From the UHGV virus genome UHGV-0209075: a DNA stretch of 41,775 nt. One strand, given 5' to 3'. The position numbers and the translations under genes are program-made. This DNA comes from a virus. Numbering within the stretch: position 1 is the first letter of the stretch; every line of letters starts with the position of its first letter. This document shows positions 4,506-40,479 of this stretch, piece by piece. Below the pieces are notes generated by a model. That model ran no database searches. It worked only from the letters and a program-made list of their open reading frames with translations, and was not told the origin of the DNA.

Positions 4506-4534
4506 AAAACTCTCCTGTTATTTCGAGCAGGAGG

Positions 4535-4596
4535 GTAACAATAGTTACATAGCAATGTCAACCATAGCAACATCACTTGGTAGTAACATTGGTTAC
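4535..4596. promoter_or_regulatory. OR-like operator region: two 14-bp dyads GTAAC-N4-GTTAC (4535-4548, 4583-4596) in the repressor/cro intergenic region
   Basis: GTAACAATAGTTAC and GTAACATTGGTTAC, centre-to-centre 48 bp; the second abuts the repressor ATG at 4597. Confidence 0.5.
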
Positions 4597-5271
4597 ATGA
4601 AAAACACTATCAGCGAACGTATTCGGAATCGTCGAAAAGACGTTGGATTAACCCAACAGCAGGTTGCGAAAGCAATCGGCATATCTCGTGTATCCGTAAC
4701 AAAATGGGAAAATGGCTCTTCAAAACCTGACGGTGAGAATTTGCATCTACTGTCAAAATTGCTTTCCAAATCTCCTGAATGGATTCTTTATGGAAAGGAC
4801 GGTCACGATAAAACCGATGATCTGCGTCTGAATCAGTATCTTTACATTAGTGACAACATCGCCCGGTTGCCCGTTTTAACGTGGGAACAGGCTGGTTATT
4901 GGGATATGAGTTGTCCAGTAACCGAGATTCCTGGCATTAAGAATTGGGTTGATGTCATGACAAAAACCGCTGAAAACTCTTTTTTATTGCATGTTGAGGG
5001 AGATGCGATGACAAACTCTAACGGCCTCCCAACCATCCCCGATGGATCTACCGTGCTGATCACACCATGCTCAAGTAACATTAGAGAACTGGTGGGAAAA
5101 ATAATCTTAATCCAATTGGAAGGAACGCCAAACGTAACACTAAAAAAAGTTGCGATTGACGGACCAAACATCTATCTGTTGTCACTGAATCCGCTTTACA
5201 AACCCATCGAACTGAATGGTGGTTACACCATTAAAGGTAAAGTTTCACAAATACATCAATACTTAGACTGA
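4597..5271 (+). CDS. cI: CI-type repressor (HTH_XRE N-domain + LexA/S24-like C-domain) with Ala at the nucleophile position (GDAM instead of GDSM)
   Basis: HTH LTQQQVAKAIGISRVSVTKWENG; C-domain motifs HVEGDAMTNSNG and VTLKKV align by eye with lambda CI EVEGNSM / FTFKKL; start taken at ATG 4597 (ORF-track ORF begins at TTG 4498). Confidence 0.8.
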   Translation: MKNTISERIRNRRKDVGLTQQQVAKAIGISRVSVTKWENGSSKPDGENLHLLSKLLSKSPEWILYGKDGHDKTDDLRLNQYLYISDNIARLPVLTWEQAGYWDMSCPVTEIPGIKNWVDVMTKTAENSFLLHVEGDAMTNSNGLPTIPDGSTVLITPCSSNIRELVGKIILIQLEGTPNVTLKKVAIDGPNIYLLSLNPLYKPIELNGGYTIKGKVSQIHQYLD

Positions 5272-5333: not shown

Positions 5334-5362
5334 TTGACTCGAAAGGTAACTCTTGTTACCTT
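5334..5362 (+). promoter_or_regulatory. candidate PL-like promoter with a third operator dyad in the spacer
   Basis: TTGACT (5334-5339), 17-bp spacer containing GTAACTCTTGTTAC (5346-5359), then TACCTT; same dyad as the two OR-like operators. Confidence 0.35.
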
Positions 5363-5682
5363 AACGGCATACCAACCCACCCCGCCCCACAGAATGCAGG
5401 GCAATACTTCGAGTTACCAGGCAGTGGTCAGGGGTTAAGTAGCCAGCCCGAGGCGTAAGAACATGACGGCAGGGTTCAACTTTAATAACTATGCAGCAGG
5501 TTTTTGTTCCGCTACCCCGGCGTTAAGGGGAAACAGAGGATTTCTCAGTGGGCGAAGTCAAACATCAGAATGGAAGGCATCCCGGGATCGGCAAAGAAGC
5601 AGCAATGGCGCTTTATATTGACATCAGCGCCATTGCCGGACAGGTAAGAATTATCAGAGCGGTAACTAAGCGGTATGCGCCT

Positions 5683-5883
5683 TTACTTCAGAAAGTCTCT
5701 GGTGAGTGCACCGAAGATATTGTCAACGATTTCGTCATCGAACTGCGAGGACTCATCTTCAGTTACAAGGTGACCACAATTTTTGCAGATGGCTCCCGCG
5801 AAACTGTCAGAGCCCTGCGGCTTAAAGGATGTGTCAAAGACTTCGCCACCACATTCTGGGCAAGAAAACTTGATTGTACTCAT
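5683..5883 (-). CDS. small zinc-ribbon protein (CPECGG...CKNCGH), acidic C-terminus; function unknown
   Basis: 66-aa ORF from ATG 5883 preceded by AGAGGA (8-nt spacer); two CxxCG pairs; a 9-bp-stem hairpin (about 5603-5634) lies downstream; convergent with repressor. Confidence 0.5.
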   Translation of the reverse strand: MSTIKFSCPECGGEVFDTSFKPQGSDSFAGAICKNCGHLVTEDESSQFDDEIVDNIFGALTRDFLK

Positions 5884-5975
5884 AACCAATTTCCTCTCGA
5901 GTAACAGACCCCTCAGAGGATACCACCTCGCCTGACGTGGTTAAAAGCAGGCAACGCTAACCACAAGGAGCCGAC

Positions 5976-6194
5976 ATGCAGAAACGAGAACCCGTCATCA
6001 TCGCGCCAGACTATACCGATGATGAACTTTATGAGTGGATGCGCCAGAAAATTAATGCAGCGCAGGATCTGAAATGGGCCAATGAAGCCAAGGCTAAGCA
6101 GGCTGAAAATCTGTCCGCTCTGGAGCAGGATATCACCAGGCTGGAAAAAGCAGCGGCATTAAGCATTGCCAGAATGATTACATACCAGCGTTAA
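5976..6194 (+). CDS. small coiled-coil protein (72 aa); function unknown
   Basis: ATG 5976 preceded by AAGGAG (5-nt spacer); divergent from zinc-ribbon gene with 92-bp intergenic region. Confidence 0.5.
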   Translation: MQKREPVIIAPDYTDDELYEWMRQKINAAQDLKWANEAKAKQAENLSALEQDITRLEKAAALSIARMITYQR

Positions 6195-6200
6195 TAGCTA

Positions 6201-6283
6201 ACCAACGAAGCTAAGGTTGGTAATTAAGGAGTTCTCCACGGGTGAAGTGGAGTGCGTGCGCCGGACACGGGTGAACATCCGGC
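6201..6283 (+). other. three tandem stem-loops; the second and third share the motif CACGGGTGAA
   Basis: ACCAAC/GTTGGT (6201-6221), CTCCAC/GTGGAG (6234-6252), GCCGGA/TCCGGC (6260-6283); 10-mer CACGGGTGAA at 6237-6246 and 6266-6275; no U-tracts. Confidence 0.4.
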
Positions 6284-6578
6284 ACTGACAGTTTACTGAA
6301 AGGATATTTCTCTGAAAAGTCAGAGCATAACGCGAAAGCACACGGAGAAGCTCGTCTCTCTGTACTTTGTCGTTAAATTTAATTCGACCGTGCGCTTCCG
6401 GTTGTGGCAATCCGCGAAATGGCGCGGCGGTAAGTATGGCGGGGTTATTCCTTCCCCTTGAGGACACCGGGTTGTCAGGCTGACCATACGCTTAAGTGAC
6501 AGCCACGCCACAATATCCATGTGTAGTCTTTGGTGGCATCAGTTCTACTCCGTGACTGCTCTGCCGCCCTTTTTAAAG

Positions 6579-6732
6579 TGAATTTTGTGATGCGGTGAAT
6601 GCGGCTCAGCGCACGCGGAACAGTTAAAACAAGCGGTCTTTTACGGGCGTAACGGGAATGCTCTGTATCCGGCGTTAATTGTTAACTGGTTAACGTCACC
6701 TGGAGGCACCAGGCACCGCATCACAAAATTCA
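6579..6732. repeat. 154-bp element bounded by a perfect 19-bp inverted repeat (TGAATTTTGTGATGCGGTG / CACCGCATCACAAAATTCA)
   Basis: Arms at 6579-6597 and 6714-6732 are exact reverse complements; right arm ends 5 nt before the GAGGA SD of the 6750 ORF; interior contains GTTAACTGGTTAAC and CCTGGAGGCACCAGG palindromes. Confidence 0.6.
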
Positions 6733-6749
6733 TTGTTGAGGACGCGATA

Positions 6750-6938
6750 ATGGAAACGTTATTACCAAACGTTAATACGTCTGAAGGTTGTTTTGATATT
6801 GGTGTTCTGCTCAGTAACCGGGAGTTTACGGAAGATGCCATTAAGATGAGAAAATATGAACCTTATCTTCTCAATGATAATTCCATACTTTCCAGAATTG
6901 CCCTTCTTGAACTTGGTATTATCGGAGAACAGCAGTGA
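6750..6938 (+). CDS. small protein (62 aa), AT-rich cargo gene; function unknown
   Basis: ATG 6750 preceded by GAGGA (7-nt spacer); lower GC than neighbours. Confidence 0.4.
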   Translation: METLLPNVNTSEGCFDIGVLLSNREFTEDAIKMRKYEPYLLNDNSILSRIALLELGIIGEQQ

Positions 6939-7123
6939 CTTCAGCATTTGCGCTGGTGATGACCGTTTTTCTTATAACGGGTGAGCCACAAAATGTGATT
7001 ACCGGAATTTATGACAGTAAGTCATCCTGCATTCAGGTAAGGGACGAACAAAAAATCCCCGGTGAATGCCTCCCGTTAAAAAAAGTATCGCTGAACCTGA
7101 ATAACGAAATACCGGCTGGATAA
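6935..7123 (+). CDS. small protein (62 aa) with N-terminal hydrophobic segment and two Cys; function unknown
   Basis: GTG 6935 overlaps the upstream stop (GTGA) and is preceded by GGAG (7-nt spacer), indicating translational coupling. Confidence 0.4.
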   Translation: MTSAFALVMTVFLITGEPQNVITGIYDSKSSCIQVRDEQKIPGECLPLKKVSLNLNNEIPAG

Positions 7124-7218
7124 CCCGCCAGCCATATTAACGCCATACCAACGGATTAAAAATGCCAGCAATGGCAGGGATTCGTTCACCCTGAAATCTG
7201 TAATGAGGTTAAAACACA

Positions 7219-9693
7219 ATGAGTAAAATCTTTATTTGCGCTGCTATTCCTGACGAACAGGCCATAAAAGAAGATAGCGCTGTTGCGGTGGCCACTGCCA
7301 TTGAAGCCGGTGATGAACGTCGCGCCCGCGCAAAATTTCACTGGCAATTCCTGGAACATTATCCGGCTGCTCAGGACTGCGCTTATAAATTTCTTGTTTG
7401 CGAGGATAAACCCGGTATACCCCGCCCTGCCCTCGATTCCTGGGATGCTGAATATATGCAGGAAAACCGCTGGGATGAGGAATCCGCTTCCTTTATTCCG
7501 GTCGAACCAGAATCCGATCCGATGAACGTCAATTTTGACAAGCTGTCCCTTGAAGTACAGAACGCGGTCCTGGTTAAGTTCGGTACATGTGAAAACATCA
7601 CCGTTGATATGGCGATTGACGCGCAGGAATTACTGCAGGAAGACGTTGCTACCTTTGACGGGCATATCGTTGAAGCACTGATGAAAACGCCTGAAATTAA
7701 CGCTATGTATCCGGAACGCAAACTGTTCGCTATCGGATGGGTTAAACACAAATGTAATCCGGGTGCCAAATGGCCAGAAATTCAGGCTGAATTACGTAAC
7801 TGGAAAAAACGGCAGGACGCAGAGCGCAAAGAGACTGGAAAATACACGTCTGTTGTTGATCTCGCCCGCGCCAGAGTCAATCAACAGCACACTGAAAACT
7901 CAGCAGGAAAAATCAACCCAGTCACTGCCGCCATTTGTCGCGAATACAAGCAGACATGGAAAACGCTGGATGAAGAACTGGCCTACGCTCTCTGGCCTGG
8001 CGATATTGATACCGGAAACATTGACGGCAGCATCCATCGCTGGGCAAAAAATGAAGTTATCGACAAAGATCGCGAAGACTGGAAGCGCATTTCCGCATCA
8101 ATGCGCAAACAACCCGATGCCGTTCGCTACGACCGTCAGACTATTTTTGGCCTTGTCCGTGAGCGTCCGATCGACATTCACAAAGATCCCGTAGCACTGA
8201 ACAAATACATCACTGAATACCTGACTACCAAGGGCGTGTTTGAAGATGACGAAGGAACAAATCAGGGCACAGCTGGTACTCTCCCGTCACCAGTACCAGA
8301 AACTGATGCAGTGGAAACGGCAATGCCGGACAACGAAAAAACCGAATGCGAAGTGGAAGACGAACCATCTGTAGAGCGTGAGGGACCGTTCTACTTCCTT
8401 TTCACCGATAAGGACGGCGAAAAATACGGTCGCGCAAACAAACTTTCTGGTCTGGAAAAAGCACTGGCCCTGGGAGCTACGGAAATCACAAAAGAGGAAT
8501 ACTTCGCACGTAAAAACGGCACGTACTCAGGTTCACAACAAAATACTGGTGCATCTGACACGATCGCACAACCAGAGCCGGTAAAAGTTACCGCTGACGA
8601 AGTAAACAAAATTATGCAGGCAGCCAATATCAGCCAGCCTGACGCCAATAAGTTGCTTGCTGTATCACGTGGTGAATTTGTTGCAGGGATTAGCGCCCCG
8701 AATGATCCGAAATGGGTGAAGGGGATTGAAACCCGCGATTCAGTGAATCAGAACCAGCAAGAAACGGAACAGAACGGCCAGAAAGCGGAACAAAACAGCC
8801 CAAATGCGTTACAAAACGAGCCAGAAACGAAACATCCTGAACCAGTGGCGCAACAGGAAGTGGAAAAAGTCTGCACCGCCTGCGGTCAGACCGGCGGCGG
8901 CAACTACCCTGATTGTGGCGCGGTGATGGGCGACGCAACATACCAGGAAACATTCGATGAAGAGTATCAGGTTGAAGTTCAGGAAGATGATCCGGAGGAA
9001 ATGGAAGGCGCTGAACATCCACACAAGGAGAACACTGGCGGCAATCAGCATCACGATAGCGATAATGAAACTGGCGAGACGGCAGATCACTCAATTAAGG
9101 TGAACGGTCATCAAGAAATCACATCCACCAGCAGGACGTGTGACCATCTAATGATCGACCTTGAAACCATGGGAAAAAATCCTGATGCCCCGATCATCTC
9201 AATAGGTGCAATATTTTTCGATCCGCAAACCGGAGATATGGGACCGGAATTTAGTAAGACTATCGATCTGGAAACTGCTGGCGGAGTCATTGATCGGGAC
9301 ACCATTAAATGGTGGCTTAAGCAATCACGCGAAGCGCAATCTGCCATTATGACCGATGAAATCCCGTTAGATGATGCACTGTTACAATTGCGGGAATTTA
9401 TCGACGAAAACTCCGGTGAATTTTTTGTTCAGGTCTGGGGAAATGGAGCCAACTTCGACAACACGATTTTGCGCCGTTCATACGAACGGCAGGGGATCCC
9501 CTGCCCGTGGCGTTACTACAACGATCGCGATGTACGCACAATCGTTGAGCTGGGGAAGGCCATAGACTTCGATGCCAGAACGGCTATTCCATTCGAAGGT
9601 GAGCGCCATAATGCACTTGATGACGCCCGTTACCAGGCAAAATACGTTTCAGCTATCTGGCAAAAACTGATCCCGAGTCAGGCTGATTTTTAA
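7219..9693 (+). CDS. large early-left protein with C-terminal DEDDh (DnaQ-like) 3'-5' exonuclease domain
   Basis: Exo motifs MIDLETMG, WGNGANFDNTIL and HNALDDARYQAKY in roughly residues 645-810; Glu/Gln/Asn-rich acidic linker; N-terminal ~340 aa unassigned. Confidence 0.7.
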   Translation: MSKIFICAAIPDEQAIKEDSAVAVATAIEAGDERRARAKFHWQFLEHYPAAQDCAYKFLVCEDKPGIPRPALDSWDAEYMQENRWDEESASFIPVEPESDPMNVNFDKLSLEVQNAVLVKFGTCENITVDMAIDAQELLQEDVATFDGHIVEALMKTPEINAMYPERKLFAIGWVKHKCNPGAKWPEIQAELRNWKKRQDAERKETGKYTSVVDLARARVNQQHTENSAGKINPVTAAICREYKQTWKTLDEELAYALWPGDIDTGNIDGSIHRWAKNEVIDKDREDWKRISASMRKQPDAVRYDRQTIFGLVRERPIDIHKDPVALNKYITEYLTTKGVFEDDEGTNQGTAGTLPSPVPETDAVETAMPDNEKTECEVEDEPSVEREGPFYFLFTDKDGEKYGRANKLSGLEKALALGATEITKEEYFARKNGTYSGSQQNTGASDTIAQPEPVKVTADEVNKIMQAANISQPDANKLLAVSRGEFVAGISAPNDPKWVKGIETRDSVNQNQQETEQNGQKAEQNSPNALQNEPETKHPEPVAQQEVEKVCTACGQTGGGNYPDCGAVMGDATYQETFDEEYQVEVQEDDPEEMEGAEHPHKENTGGNQHHDSDNETGETADHSIKVNGHQEITSTSRTCDHLMIDLETMGKNPDAPIISIGAIFFDPQTGDMGPEFSKTIDLETAGGVIDRDTIKWWLKQSREAQSAIMTDEIPLDDALLQLREFIDENSGEFFVQVWGNGANFDNTILRRSYERQGIPCPWRYYNDRDVRTIVELGKAIDFDARTAIPFEGERHNALDDARYQAKYVSAIWQKLIPSQADF

Positions 9694-36085: not shown

Positions 36086-36090
36086 GCATG

Positions 36091-36121
36091 TAAAAAGGCC
36101 CCAACACATGTGCGTGGGGCC
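36091..36121 (-). terminator. hairpin + U-tract on minus strand between cargo ORF and holin
   Basis: GGCCCC-13 nt-GGGGCC followed on minus strand by UUUUUAC. Confidence 0.45.
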
Positions 36122-36517
36122 TGAGAGTATACATGGTTTCAGTCAACTGCATGGTGCCGGGTGCCTCCCGGTGAATTCAGTACCAGCACCTGAATCCGCG
36201 ATTATCCCATATACCTACTCGCTGATTGCCCCTCCGCACAGGGGGATTCACCATGCCAGTTTCTTTTAACAAACTCCCCGCAAACCAGACAACAGTCAAC
36301 CGCCTGAATTGTGAAGTATTTAAAAATTTCTCCCGCTAACTGATACCCGGCTAACAGTCTGGCGTTTTCTTTTTCAGCAACGGGAAAGCAACAACCACCA
36401 CACCCGCCACCAGCACACCGTCAGCCAGCACTGACATTATCCGGCTGCTGCAATGCCACTCACAAAAACAGTAAGCAATCACTTTTTACCGTAACAAGTG
36501 ATAATCCAGATATGTAT

Positions 36518-36984: not shown

Positions 36985-37058
36985 CGCGCTGTACTGGATT
37001 CGAACCAGTGACCGATTGCTTAGAAGGCAATTGCTCTGTCCGGCTGAGCTAACAACGC
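36985..37058 (-). tRNA. tRNA-Arg (anticodon UCU)
   Basis: Hand-folded cloverleaf: acceptor GCGTTGT/ACAGCGC, D-stem GCTC/GAGC, anticodon stem ATTGC/GCAAT with loop CTTCTAA, T-arm ACTGG-TTCGAAT-CCAGT. Confidence 0.8.
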
Positions 37059-37158
37059 TGAATACCGATAATGGACCGCCATCGGGGACCCGCCCCCGCA
37101 CCAACAACCCTGTTATCGCGTCGTCTGCTCTTCCTGATAAGCTAATGGCGGTTTGTGA

Positions 37159-37234
37159 TGGTGGCCCTTGCTGGATTTGAACCAGCGACCTGGCGATTAT
37201 GAGTCGCTCGCTCTCACCACTGAGCTAAAGGGCC
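37159..37234 (-). tRNA. tRNA with CAU anticodon (Ile2/lysidine-type or Met), CCA encoded
   Basis: Hand-folded cloverleaf: acceptor GGCCCTT/AAGGGCC, anticodon loop CTCATAA, T-arm GCTGG-TTCAAAT-CCAGC; resembles E. coli ileX by eye. Confidence 0.8.
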
Positions 37235-40070: not shown

Positions 40071-40226
40071 TTACTCCTCAGGTTCGTAGACTGTGAAGAC
40101 AGCGACCTCCGTCTGGCCGGTTCGAATTCGTACCTCGCAGAGGTCTTTCCTCGTTACCAGTGCCGTCACTATGACGGTTAAACAGATGACGATCAGGGCG
40201 ATTAACATCGCCTTTTGCTGCTTCAT
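40071..40226 (-). CDS. hok: Hok/Gef-family type I toxin
   Basis: MKQQKAMLIALIVICLTVIVTALVTRKDLCEVRIRTGQTEVAVFTVYEPEE is near-identical to E. coli HokD/RelF as I recall it; AAGGAG SD. Confidence 0.8.
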   Translation of the reverse strand: MKQQKAMLIALIVICLTVIVTALVTRKDLCEVRIRTGQTEVAVFTVYEPEE

Positions 40227-40283
40227 AGCCTGCTTCTCCTTGCCTTTCGGCACGTAAGAGGCTAACCTAGATTTGCCGTTCAT
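40071..40283 (-). CDS. mok: mok-like in-frame N-terminally extended reading frame over hok
   Basis: ATG 40283 opens a 70-codon frame ending at the hok stop, as I recall for chromosomal mok/hok loci. Confidence 0.5.
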   Translation of the reverse strand: MNGKSRLASYVPKGKEKQAMKQQKAMLIALIVICLTVIVTALVTRKDLCEVRIRTGQTEVAVFTVYEPEE

Positions 40284-40347
40284 AGATTGAGCCTCAGATT
40301 AATGTTAAGCGTCTTGCAGGACGCGTAATGTTAACTGGGGCTTTTCT

Positions 40348-40383
40348 CTATCTGCCTTTGGTGTTCATGCCTGAGGCAGATAG
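40348..40383. other. 10-bp perfect-stem hairpin in the hok/mok upstream region
   Basis: CTATCTGCCT-16 nt-AGGCAGATAG. Confidence 0.4.
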
Positions 40384-40479
40384 CCTCAAGCACCCGCAGC
40401 AATTCTACTTAAGTTAGATAAGCTTTTCTATGGTATTCTCTCAGCGTCCCGTAAATACAGTCTCGGCTCATCATTTTTA

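Follow-up and report, generated by a model that had tools for sequence, protein, structure and literature searches.

Short hairpins behind ydfC in a Qin/PPompW-type prophage as a possible orphaned leader of an opposite-strand accessory gene

What is the role of a row of short RNA hairpins that follows directly on a prophage gene, shares a repeated motif, and contains no standard terminator? The question is raised by the virus genome UHGV-0209075, of which a stretch of 41,775 nucleotides (nt) was analyzed, referred to as the window in the following. In this window, the initial annotation had noticed three tandem stem-loops immediately after a gene of 72 amino acids (aa) and had proposed them as binding sites of an RNA-binding factor or as a cis-acting element, i.e., a nut- or put-like antitermination site or a processing or stability element. 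Our preferred, still tentative answer is a different one: the second to fourth hairpin together with a neighboring AAGGAG motif may represent the leader of an accessory-gene slot on the opposite strand, orphaned in the window by deletion of the gene.

Folding of the 156-nt stretch 6190-6345 resulted in a row of local hairpins (z-score -2.5 compared with dinucleotide shuffles). It reproduced the three stem-loops directly past the 72-aa gene (6197-6221, 6234-6252, and 6260-6283) and added a fourth one, absent from the initial annotation. The module consists of the following features:

6197-6203/6215-6221, plus strand: hairpin 1, GCUAACC paired with GGUUGGU, 7 base pairs (bp), -7.4 kcal/mol, z -1.9
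6226..6231, minus strand: CUCCUU (AAGGAG on the plus strand), putative anti-Shine-Dalgarno (anti-SD) motif in relatives, without partner in the window
6234-6239/6247-6252: hairpin 2, CUCCAC paired with GUGGAG, loop GGGUGAA on the plus and UUCACCC on the minus strand, first copy of the repeat
6260-6265/6278-6283, plus strand: hairpin 3, GCCGGA paired with UCCGGC, 12-nt loop CACGGGUGAACA, second copy of the repeat
6285-6323, plus strand: hairpin 4, separated by about 10 nt from the RNase III stem with which DicF maturation starts

Hairpin 2 is predicted to fold with -9.1 kcal/mol (z -2.7) on the plus and -8.6 kcal/mol (z -3.1) on the minus strand. Hairpin 3 reaches -10.5 kcal/mol on the plus strand at a z-score of just -0.2; on the minus strand, it forms a 10-bp stem (6258-6267 with 6276-6285) with three G.U pairs gained and an 8-nt loop UUCACCCG, amounting to -15.9 kcal/mol (z -3.0). 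The statement that none of the hairpins is a standard terminator was borne out by a terminator scan, which detected no terminator-like site in 6195-6300, the hairpin tails UGCGUGC and ACUGACA representing no U-tract. The Rfam scan suggested as a check came back empty for the hairpins: within 5800-7300 and up to E = 10, all matches (DicF, a weak STnc100-like one, and one chance-level snoRNA with E = 3.3) are located outside of them, and the hairpin module of four relatives yielded no match. The element itself is undescribed and of familiar kinds (structured leader or intercistronic stem-loop).

The common 10-mer CACGGGTGAA is found exactly at 6237-6246 and 6266-6275, with no other copy in the window. 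According to our own arithmetic, one exact 10-mer pair within ~40 nt is expected ~1.6 times per 41.8-kb window, so the repeat alone is unremarkable. We nevertheless count it as real because relatives likewise contain the stems and the core CACGG(G/A)T(G/A)A and because 29-bp deletions occur between the copies. In the two loci concerned (L007 and L061), the deletion lies exactly between two CACGGGTGA copies and leaves the hairpin 2 5' arm fused with the hairpin 3 3' arm; a minus-strand gene of the slot described below is still present in one of the two. While both hairpins do contain the exact motif, they were claimed to present it alike, in loop and upper stem; on the plus strand this applies to hairpin 2, whereas in hairpin 3 the 10-mer lies wholly within the loop. 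Exact identity is limited to the window haplotype, K-12 carrying CACGGGTGAG and CACGGGTGCG. Three candidate interpretations of the motif region were rejected: a mini open reading frame (ORF) of 10 codons (Shine-Dalgarno sequence (SD) AAGGAG, GTG at 6242, TGA at 6272), lacking its stop in K-12 and its start in GGGTCAG variants; an Arg-rich frame (..VRRTRVNIRH*), being a G+C-rich stem read as codons and lost in L004; and weak, unconserved resemblances to CsrA, DnaA-box, and REP sequences.

The opposite-strand slot becomes apparent by comparison with related prophages. Loci were sampled by exact-pattern scans and are mostly closely related E. coli prophages, thus representing non-independent observations; the scan anchored in hairpin 4 provided 124 usable loci among the matches listed, and a second scan was anchored outside the hairpins. 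The 72-aa gene of the window is ydfC (5976..6194, plus strand), as given by the RefSeq annotation of K-12 and of the prophage beside ompW in avian pathogenic E. coli (APEC) O18, the latter prophage being 99.5% identical to that of the window. ydfC adjoins the module in 67 of the 124 loci listed; in another 47, a minus-strand gene begins to the left of hairpin 2, the distance between ATG and hairpin being 25-45 nt. These slot genes belong to at least eight unrelated families of 60-96 aa sharing a common ribosome-binding site (RBS) context, none of them being assignable to a characterised family. Hairpin 2, hairpin 3, and RBS are additionally found in combination with different sequences on the right, comprising an AT-rich spacer followed by a plus-strand gene, another minus-strand gene, or a different leader; there too, this module is always located beside the start of a minus-strand gene.

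In PPompW phages and in L006, the order is ydfC, a plus-strand gene, a minus-strand gene, and hairpin 2. The window is devoid of those 650 bp, and its arrangement looks like a deletion derivative of the form with this insert. The homology break to these relatives, between GCTAA and GGTTGG, falls inside hairpin 1, which spans the junction of the ydfC 3' flank with the conserved module starting at GGTTGG; consequently, hairpin 1 is considered a by-product of this junction. Stx2 phages contain a decayed module copy and a remnant of a slot gene.

Within the module, hairpin 3 has a stem that hardly varies among 51 distinct sequences and is retained in at least seven different right-hand flanks. Between its haplotypes (loops CACGGGTGAGCA, ..GAACA, ..GCGCA, and CACGGATAAGAA), the loop differs at four of nine positions while all 12 stem positions are identical. 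For hairpin 2, there are two versions, type A (CTCCAC-GGGTGAG-GTGGAG) and a diverged type B (ACCAACACG-CTGTCA-CGTGTGGT), the second haplotype going along with the hairpin 3 loop CACGGATAAGAA; the two types are ~50% diverged and both fold. Covariation among relatives, proposed as a check, gave a divided result: type B of hairpin 2 exhibits two compensatory pairs (ACACG/CGTGT to ACATG/CATGT, and to TCACG/CGTGA), whereas counting pairs in the 51 sequences (mean identity 91%) revealed zero compensatory changes in hairpins 3 and 4, where the test says nothing either way because the stems are essentially invariant. The type B loop is present in both orientations (CTGTCA in L004, L034, and L090; TGACAG in L029 and L018) between the same arms, as if flipped by recombination across the inverted repeat.

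Two complementarities link the module to the slot genes. Firstly, anti-SD and SD match in both haplotypes (CUCCU/AGGAG in type A, CUCCAUU/AAUGGAG in type B), with invariant arms and variable spacers; 47 of the 124 relatives possess a gene start whose SD complements such an upstream anti-SD. Secondly, loop and slot-gene start region share 7 nt in type A (GGGTGAA, p ~0.005 versus shuffled loops) and 6 nt in type B (GGATAA, p ~0.045 versus shuffled loops), where the hairpin 3 loop UUAUCC complements GGAUAA; loop and start region swapped between types have only 3 nt in common. This pattern is suggestive of a meaningful complementarity of the loops to the slot-gene start region. Upstream of both hairpins in the minus-strand direction, hairpin 4 contains a further candidate element:

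6313-6318 and 6290-6295 (reverse complement), inside hairpin 4 (6285..6323), minus strand: candidate promoter, TTTTCA, 17-nt spacer, TAAACT

It ends 5-7 nt before the minus-strand stem of hairpin 3, with the predicted transcript start at the foot of this stem (several promoter-element and cut coordinates, here and below, were assigned by homology or by eye). In a set of 35 distinct flanks chosen independently of that region, the hexamers are the least variable positions and the spacer varies, nine of its 17 positions being changed in L240; other flanks carry TGaTATTAT or TAAATT at equal distance from hairpin 3.

Based on these observations, the leader could operate as follows. In related Qin/PPompW-type prophages, where the slot gene lies between ydfC and the DicF precursor, a putative minus-strand RNA would start from the weak promoter in hairpin 4, carry hairpin 3 at or near its 5' end, and continue with hairpin 2, the anti-SD CUCCUU, and the SD with start codon. 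Both hairpin loops UUCACCC might pair with the GGGUGAA located between SD and AUG of the slot gene. Given the complementarity of loops and anti-SD, the module may protect the 5' end of the RNA and keep the ribosome-binding site closed, thereby controlling translation or stability. This complementarity to the opposite-strand RBS region in relatives appears to explain the repeated motif better than a trans-acting RNA-binding factor does. In the window, no minus-strand ORF or SD follows past the module, for which reason we regard it as an orphaned copy instead of a working member: slot gene and RBS would have been deleted, bringing the left edge of the module next to the ydfC stop and forming hairpin 1 by chance. 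The orphan is probably vestigial and, in the transcript from the early-left promoter (PL), would simply make up the initial ~130 nt of the ydfC-dicF untranslated region.

Several observations weigh against such a leader. The candidate promoter is a weak match (8/12) under the scan threshold, the K-12 3'-end/Rho data set shows no minus-strand transcript signal at the module, and the Cappable-seq supplements available in text form have no entry for the module region. Three loci (L186, L183, and L218) have another minus-strand gene before hairpin 3, so a promoter at the hairpin 4 position is not universal, and L007 has a minus-strand gene yet neither hairpin. In three minor haplotypes, loop and start region share only 3-4 nt, and the hairpin 3 stem is without compensatory change. 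The most frequent arrangement, the ydfC type, is well conserved, possibly indicating a role on the sense strand, and the dependence of the loci on pattern-anchored scans of mostly E. coli prophages applies to all counts. Substitutions gave mixed G.U and A.C signals: the common TCCGGT is tolerated on the plus strand only, ATGGAG, ACCGGA, and GCCAGA on the minus strand only, and an assignment of the functional strand by this approach was abandoned. In favor of the leader, substitutions breaking the pairing on both strands are restricted to K-12 (TCCGGA) and L014 (TACGGC), both ydfC-type, i.e., orphan loci.

Among described systems, anti-SD leaders of type I toxin mRNAs (hok, tisB) and ompA-type 5' stem-loops resemble the predicted 5' stem-loop, anti-SD/SD pairing, and start-region complementarity of the relatives. 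In contrast to type I toxins, slot genes encode 60-96-aa soluble-looking proteins and not small hydrophobic ones, have no known antisense partner RNA, and the regulated gene is absent in the window.

The operon surrounding the orphaned module is a dicBF operon of the Qin/PPompW type, the hairpins opening its ydfC-dicF untranslated region and thus belonging to the ydfC 3' untranslated region (UTR)/DicF precursor. dicB corresponds to the 62-aa ORF at 6750; ydfD and the gene of an 824-aa exonuclease come next, so that ydfC, UTR, DicF, dicB, ydfD, and exonuclease are arranged in the order of K-12 Qin. Homologues of 6150-6520 are present in 4368 of 5426 complete E. coli genomes, with at least 80% coverage of the region in 3004 genomes and at 9346 E. 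coli places altogether (median of two per genome), every one in prophages; the K-12 copy is 90% identical. Upstream, the following elements were located:

5334..5368, plus strand: probable PL, TTGACT-17-TACCTT, candidate hexamers read from the sequence
5343-5362: operator palindrome AAGGTAAC-N4-GTTACCTT overlapping PL, with the same half-sites at the right operator (OR), 4532-4551

For the recurrence of these half-sites at OR (4532-4551), 0.1 matches are expected by chance. Operator-like GGTAAC-N4-GTTAC palindromes occur at 4532-4551, 4579-4598, and 5343-5362, marking OR and the left operator OL/PL; they are found in the cro/repressor intergenic region and then again past the repressor gene terminator. 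A homologue of the K-12 ydfA 5' UTR is located at 5506-5533. The hairpins follow ~870 nt downstream of PL and after ydfC, hence forming the first part of the stretch between ydfC and dicF that was named a "long untranslated region" (PMC5069750).

The K-12 Qin dicBF operon is homologous and shares ydfC, the hairpins, the RNase III stem, DicF, dicB, and ydfD; the hairpins themselves are without description there. Unlike K-12 Qin, the window prophage is devoid of ydfA and ydfB and instead has a LexA-type repressor and, upstream of ydfC, a minus-strand Zn-ribbon gene of the ECs_2282 family (5683-5889). As the latter sits within the early-left operon, the PL transcript runs through it in antisense direction. 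In E. ruysiae, the segment GGATACCACCTCGCCTGACGTGGTTAAAAGCAGGCA (5919-5955) upstream of this gene adjoins the RNase III stem without interruption, and Izhakiella possesses a corresponding segment. An interpretation of 5919-5955 as a first part of the leader was rejected, since it travels with a minus-strand Zn-ribbon-type gene and more likely is the upstream region of that gene.

The main alternative to the minus-strand leader, possible though rather unlikely, is that hairpins 2-4 act on the sense strand as 3' ends of the ydfC (ydfABC) fragment left by RNase III cleavage, slowing down PNPase and RNase II in a REP-like manner. The two accounts are not mutually exclusive. The elements involved are:

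6326..6407, plus strand: long imperfect duplex with arms at ~6326-6348 and ~6384-6407, homologous to the K-12 RNase III stem; folds
6401..6513, plus strand: structured element of ~115 nt between RNase III cut and DicF 5' end (RNAalifold, 11 sequences)
6518..6574, plus strand: DicF small RNA (sRNA) and terminator (Rfam RF00039, match 6518-6569, 58.3 bits versus a gathering score of 48)

Directly downstream of the hairpins comes the counterpart of the K-12 stem with the mapped RNase III site, a duplex starting ~10 nt past hairpin 4 and enclosing a variable insert. In K-12, a 190-nt DicF owes its 5' end to RNase III, and the 53-nt form is produced by RNase E (bioRxiv 10.1101/2023.04.14.536235). 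The former end maps to L001 ~2754, corresponding to window ~6400, in the 3' arm of a 22-bp imperfect duplex (K-12 arms 2676-2699/2738-2761), wherefore the cut is expected by homology near 6399/6400 in the window. In Citrobacter and Izhakiella, the arms of this stem differ in sequence yet remain complementary, as judged by eye. Global RNase III maps mention DicF merely in passing, and minimum free energy folds of the whole leader differ between window and K-12 and are unreliable. In support of a sense-strand role, reverse transcription PCR showed a sense transcript from dicBp covering ydfA to dicF with no internal sense promoter found, and a ydfABC-sized RNA was seen that is missing in an rnc mutant (bioRxiv 10.1101/2023.04.14.536235). 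The prevalence of the ydfC-type arrangement (67 of the 124 loci listed; at least 80% coverage in 3004 genomes) and the common TCCGGT variant, keeping a G.U pair on the plus strand only, likewise favor it.

However, the stems are as short as 6 bp (about -9 to -10.5 kcal/mol), and on the plus strand, hairpin 3 does not exceed the shuffles. The hairpin 4 stem is lost in the diverged relatives L146b, L151, and L240, and hairpin-free leaders (L130, BL21-type) still have the RNase III stem and DicF. Furthermore, the constant minus-strand gene starts, the anti-SD, and the match of loop and start region would stay unexplained. The annotated notion of a processing or stability element stays a live option in view of the position upstream of the RNase III stem and of the RNase III-dependent ydfABC fragment in K-12. 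The hairpins themselves are too short for an RNase III site, with 6-7 bp in place of ~20 bp or more of near-continuous duplex. REP elements (repetitive extragenic palindromes) and the mosaic elements built from them (BIME) are imperfect palindromes of ~35 nt with conserved GTAG/CTAC and many copies per genome. The hairpins resemble them in being U-tract-free and situated in an operon just past a stop codon, and superficially by the arms GCCGGAT...TCCGGC, but their stems are much shorter and without adjacent GTAG/CTAC, and the module is a single locus tied to one prophage region and not dispersed, the motif occurring within the window only here.

It is unlikely as well that the hairpins have no RNA function on either strand, being nothing but inverted repeats at a mosaic junction, of recent copies, with a 10-mer owed to chance or slippage. 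Such an origin would be in accordance with homology break-points at 6214, 6237, 6255, and 6326, with the 91% mean identity of the 51 distinct sequences and the lack of compensatory change in hairpin 3, as well as with the inter-repeat deletion and an exact 10-mer pair per window being expected by chance. It is opposed by the two ~50%-diverged, folding versions of hairpin 2 including the compensatory pairs of type B, by the hairpin 3 loop changing at 4/9 positions next to 12 identical stem positions, and by survival of the module in at least seven different flanks.

Quite improbable in our view is an orphan module that is still active in the commonest arrangement, K-12 included. Here, the hexamers in hairpin 4 would drive a ~140-nt structured antisense RNA from ~6285 to ~6146. 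This RNA could pair with the PL transcript and thereby make the fate of the ydfABC fragment depend on RNase III, or its C-rich loops YUCACCC could act in trans on the GGGUGAA starts of slot genes in co-resident prophages. If true, the latter would mean that prophages influence one another through an unannotated sRNA found in most E. coli. A weak terminator-like hairpin on the minus strand (6154-6171, tail CUGCUUUUUC) lies inside ydfC and is a possible end of an antisense RNA from hairpin 4.

We consider it very improbable that identical loops on the sense RNA bind a trans-acting factor, be it CsrA or ProQ, the 30S subunit via the SD-like GGGUGA, or DicF. GGGUGA is complementary to the 16S rRNA 3' end UCACCU, GGA motifs occur in the loops of hairpin 4, some hairpin 2 variants, and type B hairpin 3, and pairing is possible between the DicF loop CUCCGUG and CACGG(G/A). 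Yet the energy of the DicF-hairpin duplex is matched by 26 of 500 shuffles, so that pairing of the DicF loop with the hairpin loops was rejected as no better than shuffles, and L129 and L132, having a different sRNA instead of DicF, keep the same loops. Moreover, type B hairpins 2 and 3 are without common motif and loops vary freely.

The nut- or put-like antitermination initially proposed for the early-left transcript, with read-through of the DicF terminator and Rho sites, is the least probable explanation and deserves hardly any credence. Its appeal lies in the position of the hairpins on an early-left phage transcript, as in lambda/P22 nut and HK022 put, upstream of the intrinsic DicF terminator that must be passed to express dicB. 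In addition, a perfect rrn-type boxA follows on the plus strand 2 nt after hairpin 3 in L186, L183, and L218, this hairpin-then-boxA succession resembling the order of rrn leaders. In the window, however, there is no boxA (CGCTCTTA / GCTCTTTAACAA) within 350 nt of the hairpins, and a search for YGCTCTTTA with up to one mismatch gave none between 2992 and 6659, the latter being the nearest match (in total 16 matches versus 15.2 expected). The loops of 7 nt (GGGUGAA) and 12 nt (CACGGGUGAACA) are no GNRA-like pentaloops on a ~5-bp stem, the commonest loop of the relatives, GGGUGAG, being unable to close with a sheared G.A pair. The distance of ~870 nt does not place the hairpins directly downstream of PL.

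The statement that the early-left arm has no N-like Arg-rich ORF holds true for both ORF list and APEC O18 annotation. The list contains no Arg-rich N candidate, no profile search aimed at N having been made, and no N is annotated between repressor and int, where RefSeq gives only the Zn-ribbon protein, YdfC, DicB, YdfD, exonuclease, Xis, and Int from repressor to attachment site. Local alignment of HK022 putL and putR with the region scored 12-15, i.e., at shuffle level, in comparison to 35 for putL versus putR. put RNAs are ~70-nt structures with two long stems (PMC9378689), to be compared with window stems of 6 bp instead of two long bulged stem-loops. In K-12, having the same hairpins, ydfABC-dicF was the longest species detected (bioRxiv 10.1101/2023.04.14.536235), and Rho lowers the downstream reads: the sense strand contains a Rho-dependent termination region with its peak within ydfC, at MG1655 1,648,855 (plus strand) in the 5' part of the gene (window ~6008), and bicyclomycin raised downstream reads from 73 to 193 (eLife 62438 supplement 2). 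Transcription of the homologous K-12 operon is thus low, and Rho cuts it short around ydfC. Together with the lack of any Rfam match, little is left of the nut/put form, while a cis-acting RNA element in general stays plausible, stems being kept while loops vary and the type B hairpin 2 showing its two compensatory pairs.

The boxA of the three relatives, TGCTCTTTAACAA in L186 and L183 and TGTTCTTTAACAA in L218 (IMG/VR loci, early-left sense strand), precedes ~520 nt antisense to a minus-strand gene of 162-172 aa. Judging by this position, it might keep Rho away from the PL transcript along the ~520-nt untranslated stretch.

Beyond the hairpins, the region hosts further RNA elements. The consensus of 6401-6513 comprises 29 pairs, seven of them with compensatory changes, and has no Rfam match. 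The element is closed by GUUGUGGC/GCCACAAC and conserved in Citrobacter, Izhakiella, and the ban-operon leader of phage P1; a possible pseudoknot connects AAGUAUGG with CCAUAC, the P1 version being GCAUGG/CCAUGC. Between DicF and dicB, a perfect 19-bp inverted repeat (6579-6597/6714-6732) closes the STnc100-like fold (6567-6782, plus strand; 37.7 bits, under the gathering score of 47), parts of which are also matched by phages P7 and D6; if cleaved within this stem, the RNA would give the published 72-nt DicF (53 + 19). In L146 (9910-10092) and L149 (4309-4497), isrK and C4 antisense RNA are located ~1 kb further along the early-left direction, the hairpin module being without subsequent DicF leader and different sRNA cargo occupying the equivalent place. 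Elsewhere on the minus strand of the window, a full STnc100 sRNA (139 bits; 36086-36285), two tRNA genes (36985-37234), and a sok antitoxin RNA (40221-40395) were found, the latter adjoining a hok-type toxin in the APEC O18 annotation.

As a consequence, a false lead is removed: the hairpins do not explain early-left antitermination in the window prophage, which may not even be needed, as the RNA of the K-12 operon largely ends at DicF. DicF is a regulator of cell division and virulence, and if the sense-strand role were true, the hairpins would help to set the ratio of ydfABC mRNA to DicF. The ~115-nt covarying element, the RNase III stem, the accessory-gene slot, and the boxA of some relatives may merit more attention than the hairpins themselves. 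Nonetheless, this is a first description of part of the unannotated ydfC-dicF region, present in ~80% of complete E. coli genomes, and an opposite-strand slot with a common structured leader would provide a testable handle on the expression of small prophage cargo genes within a counter-running operon.

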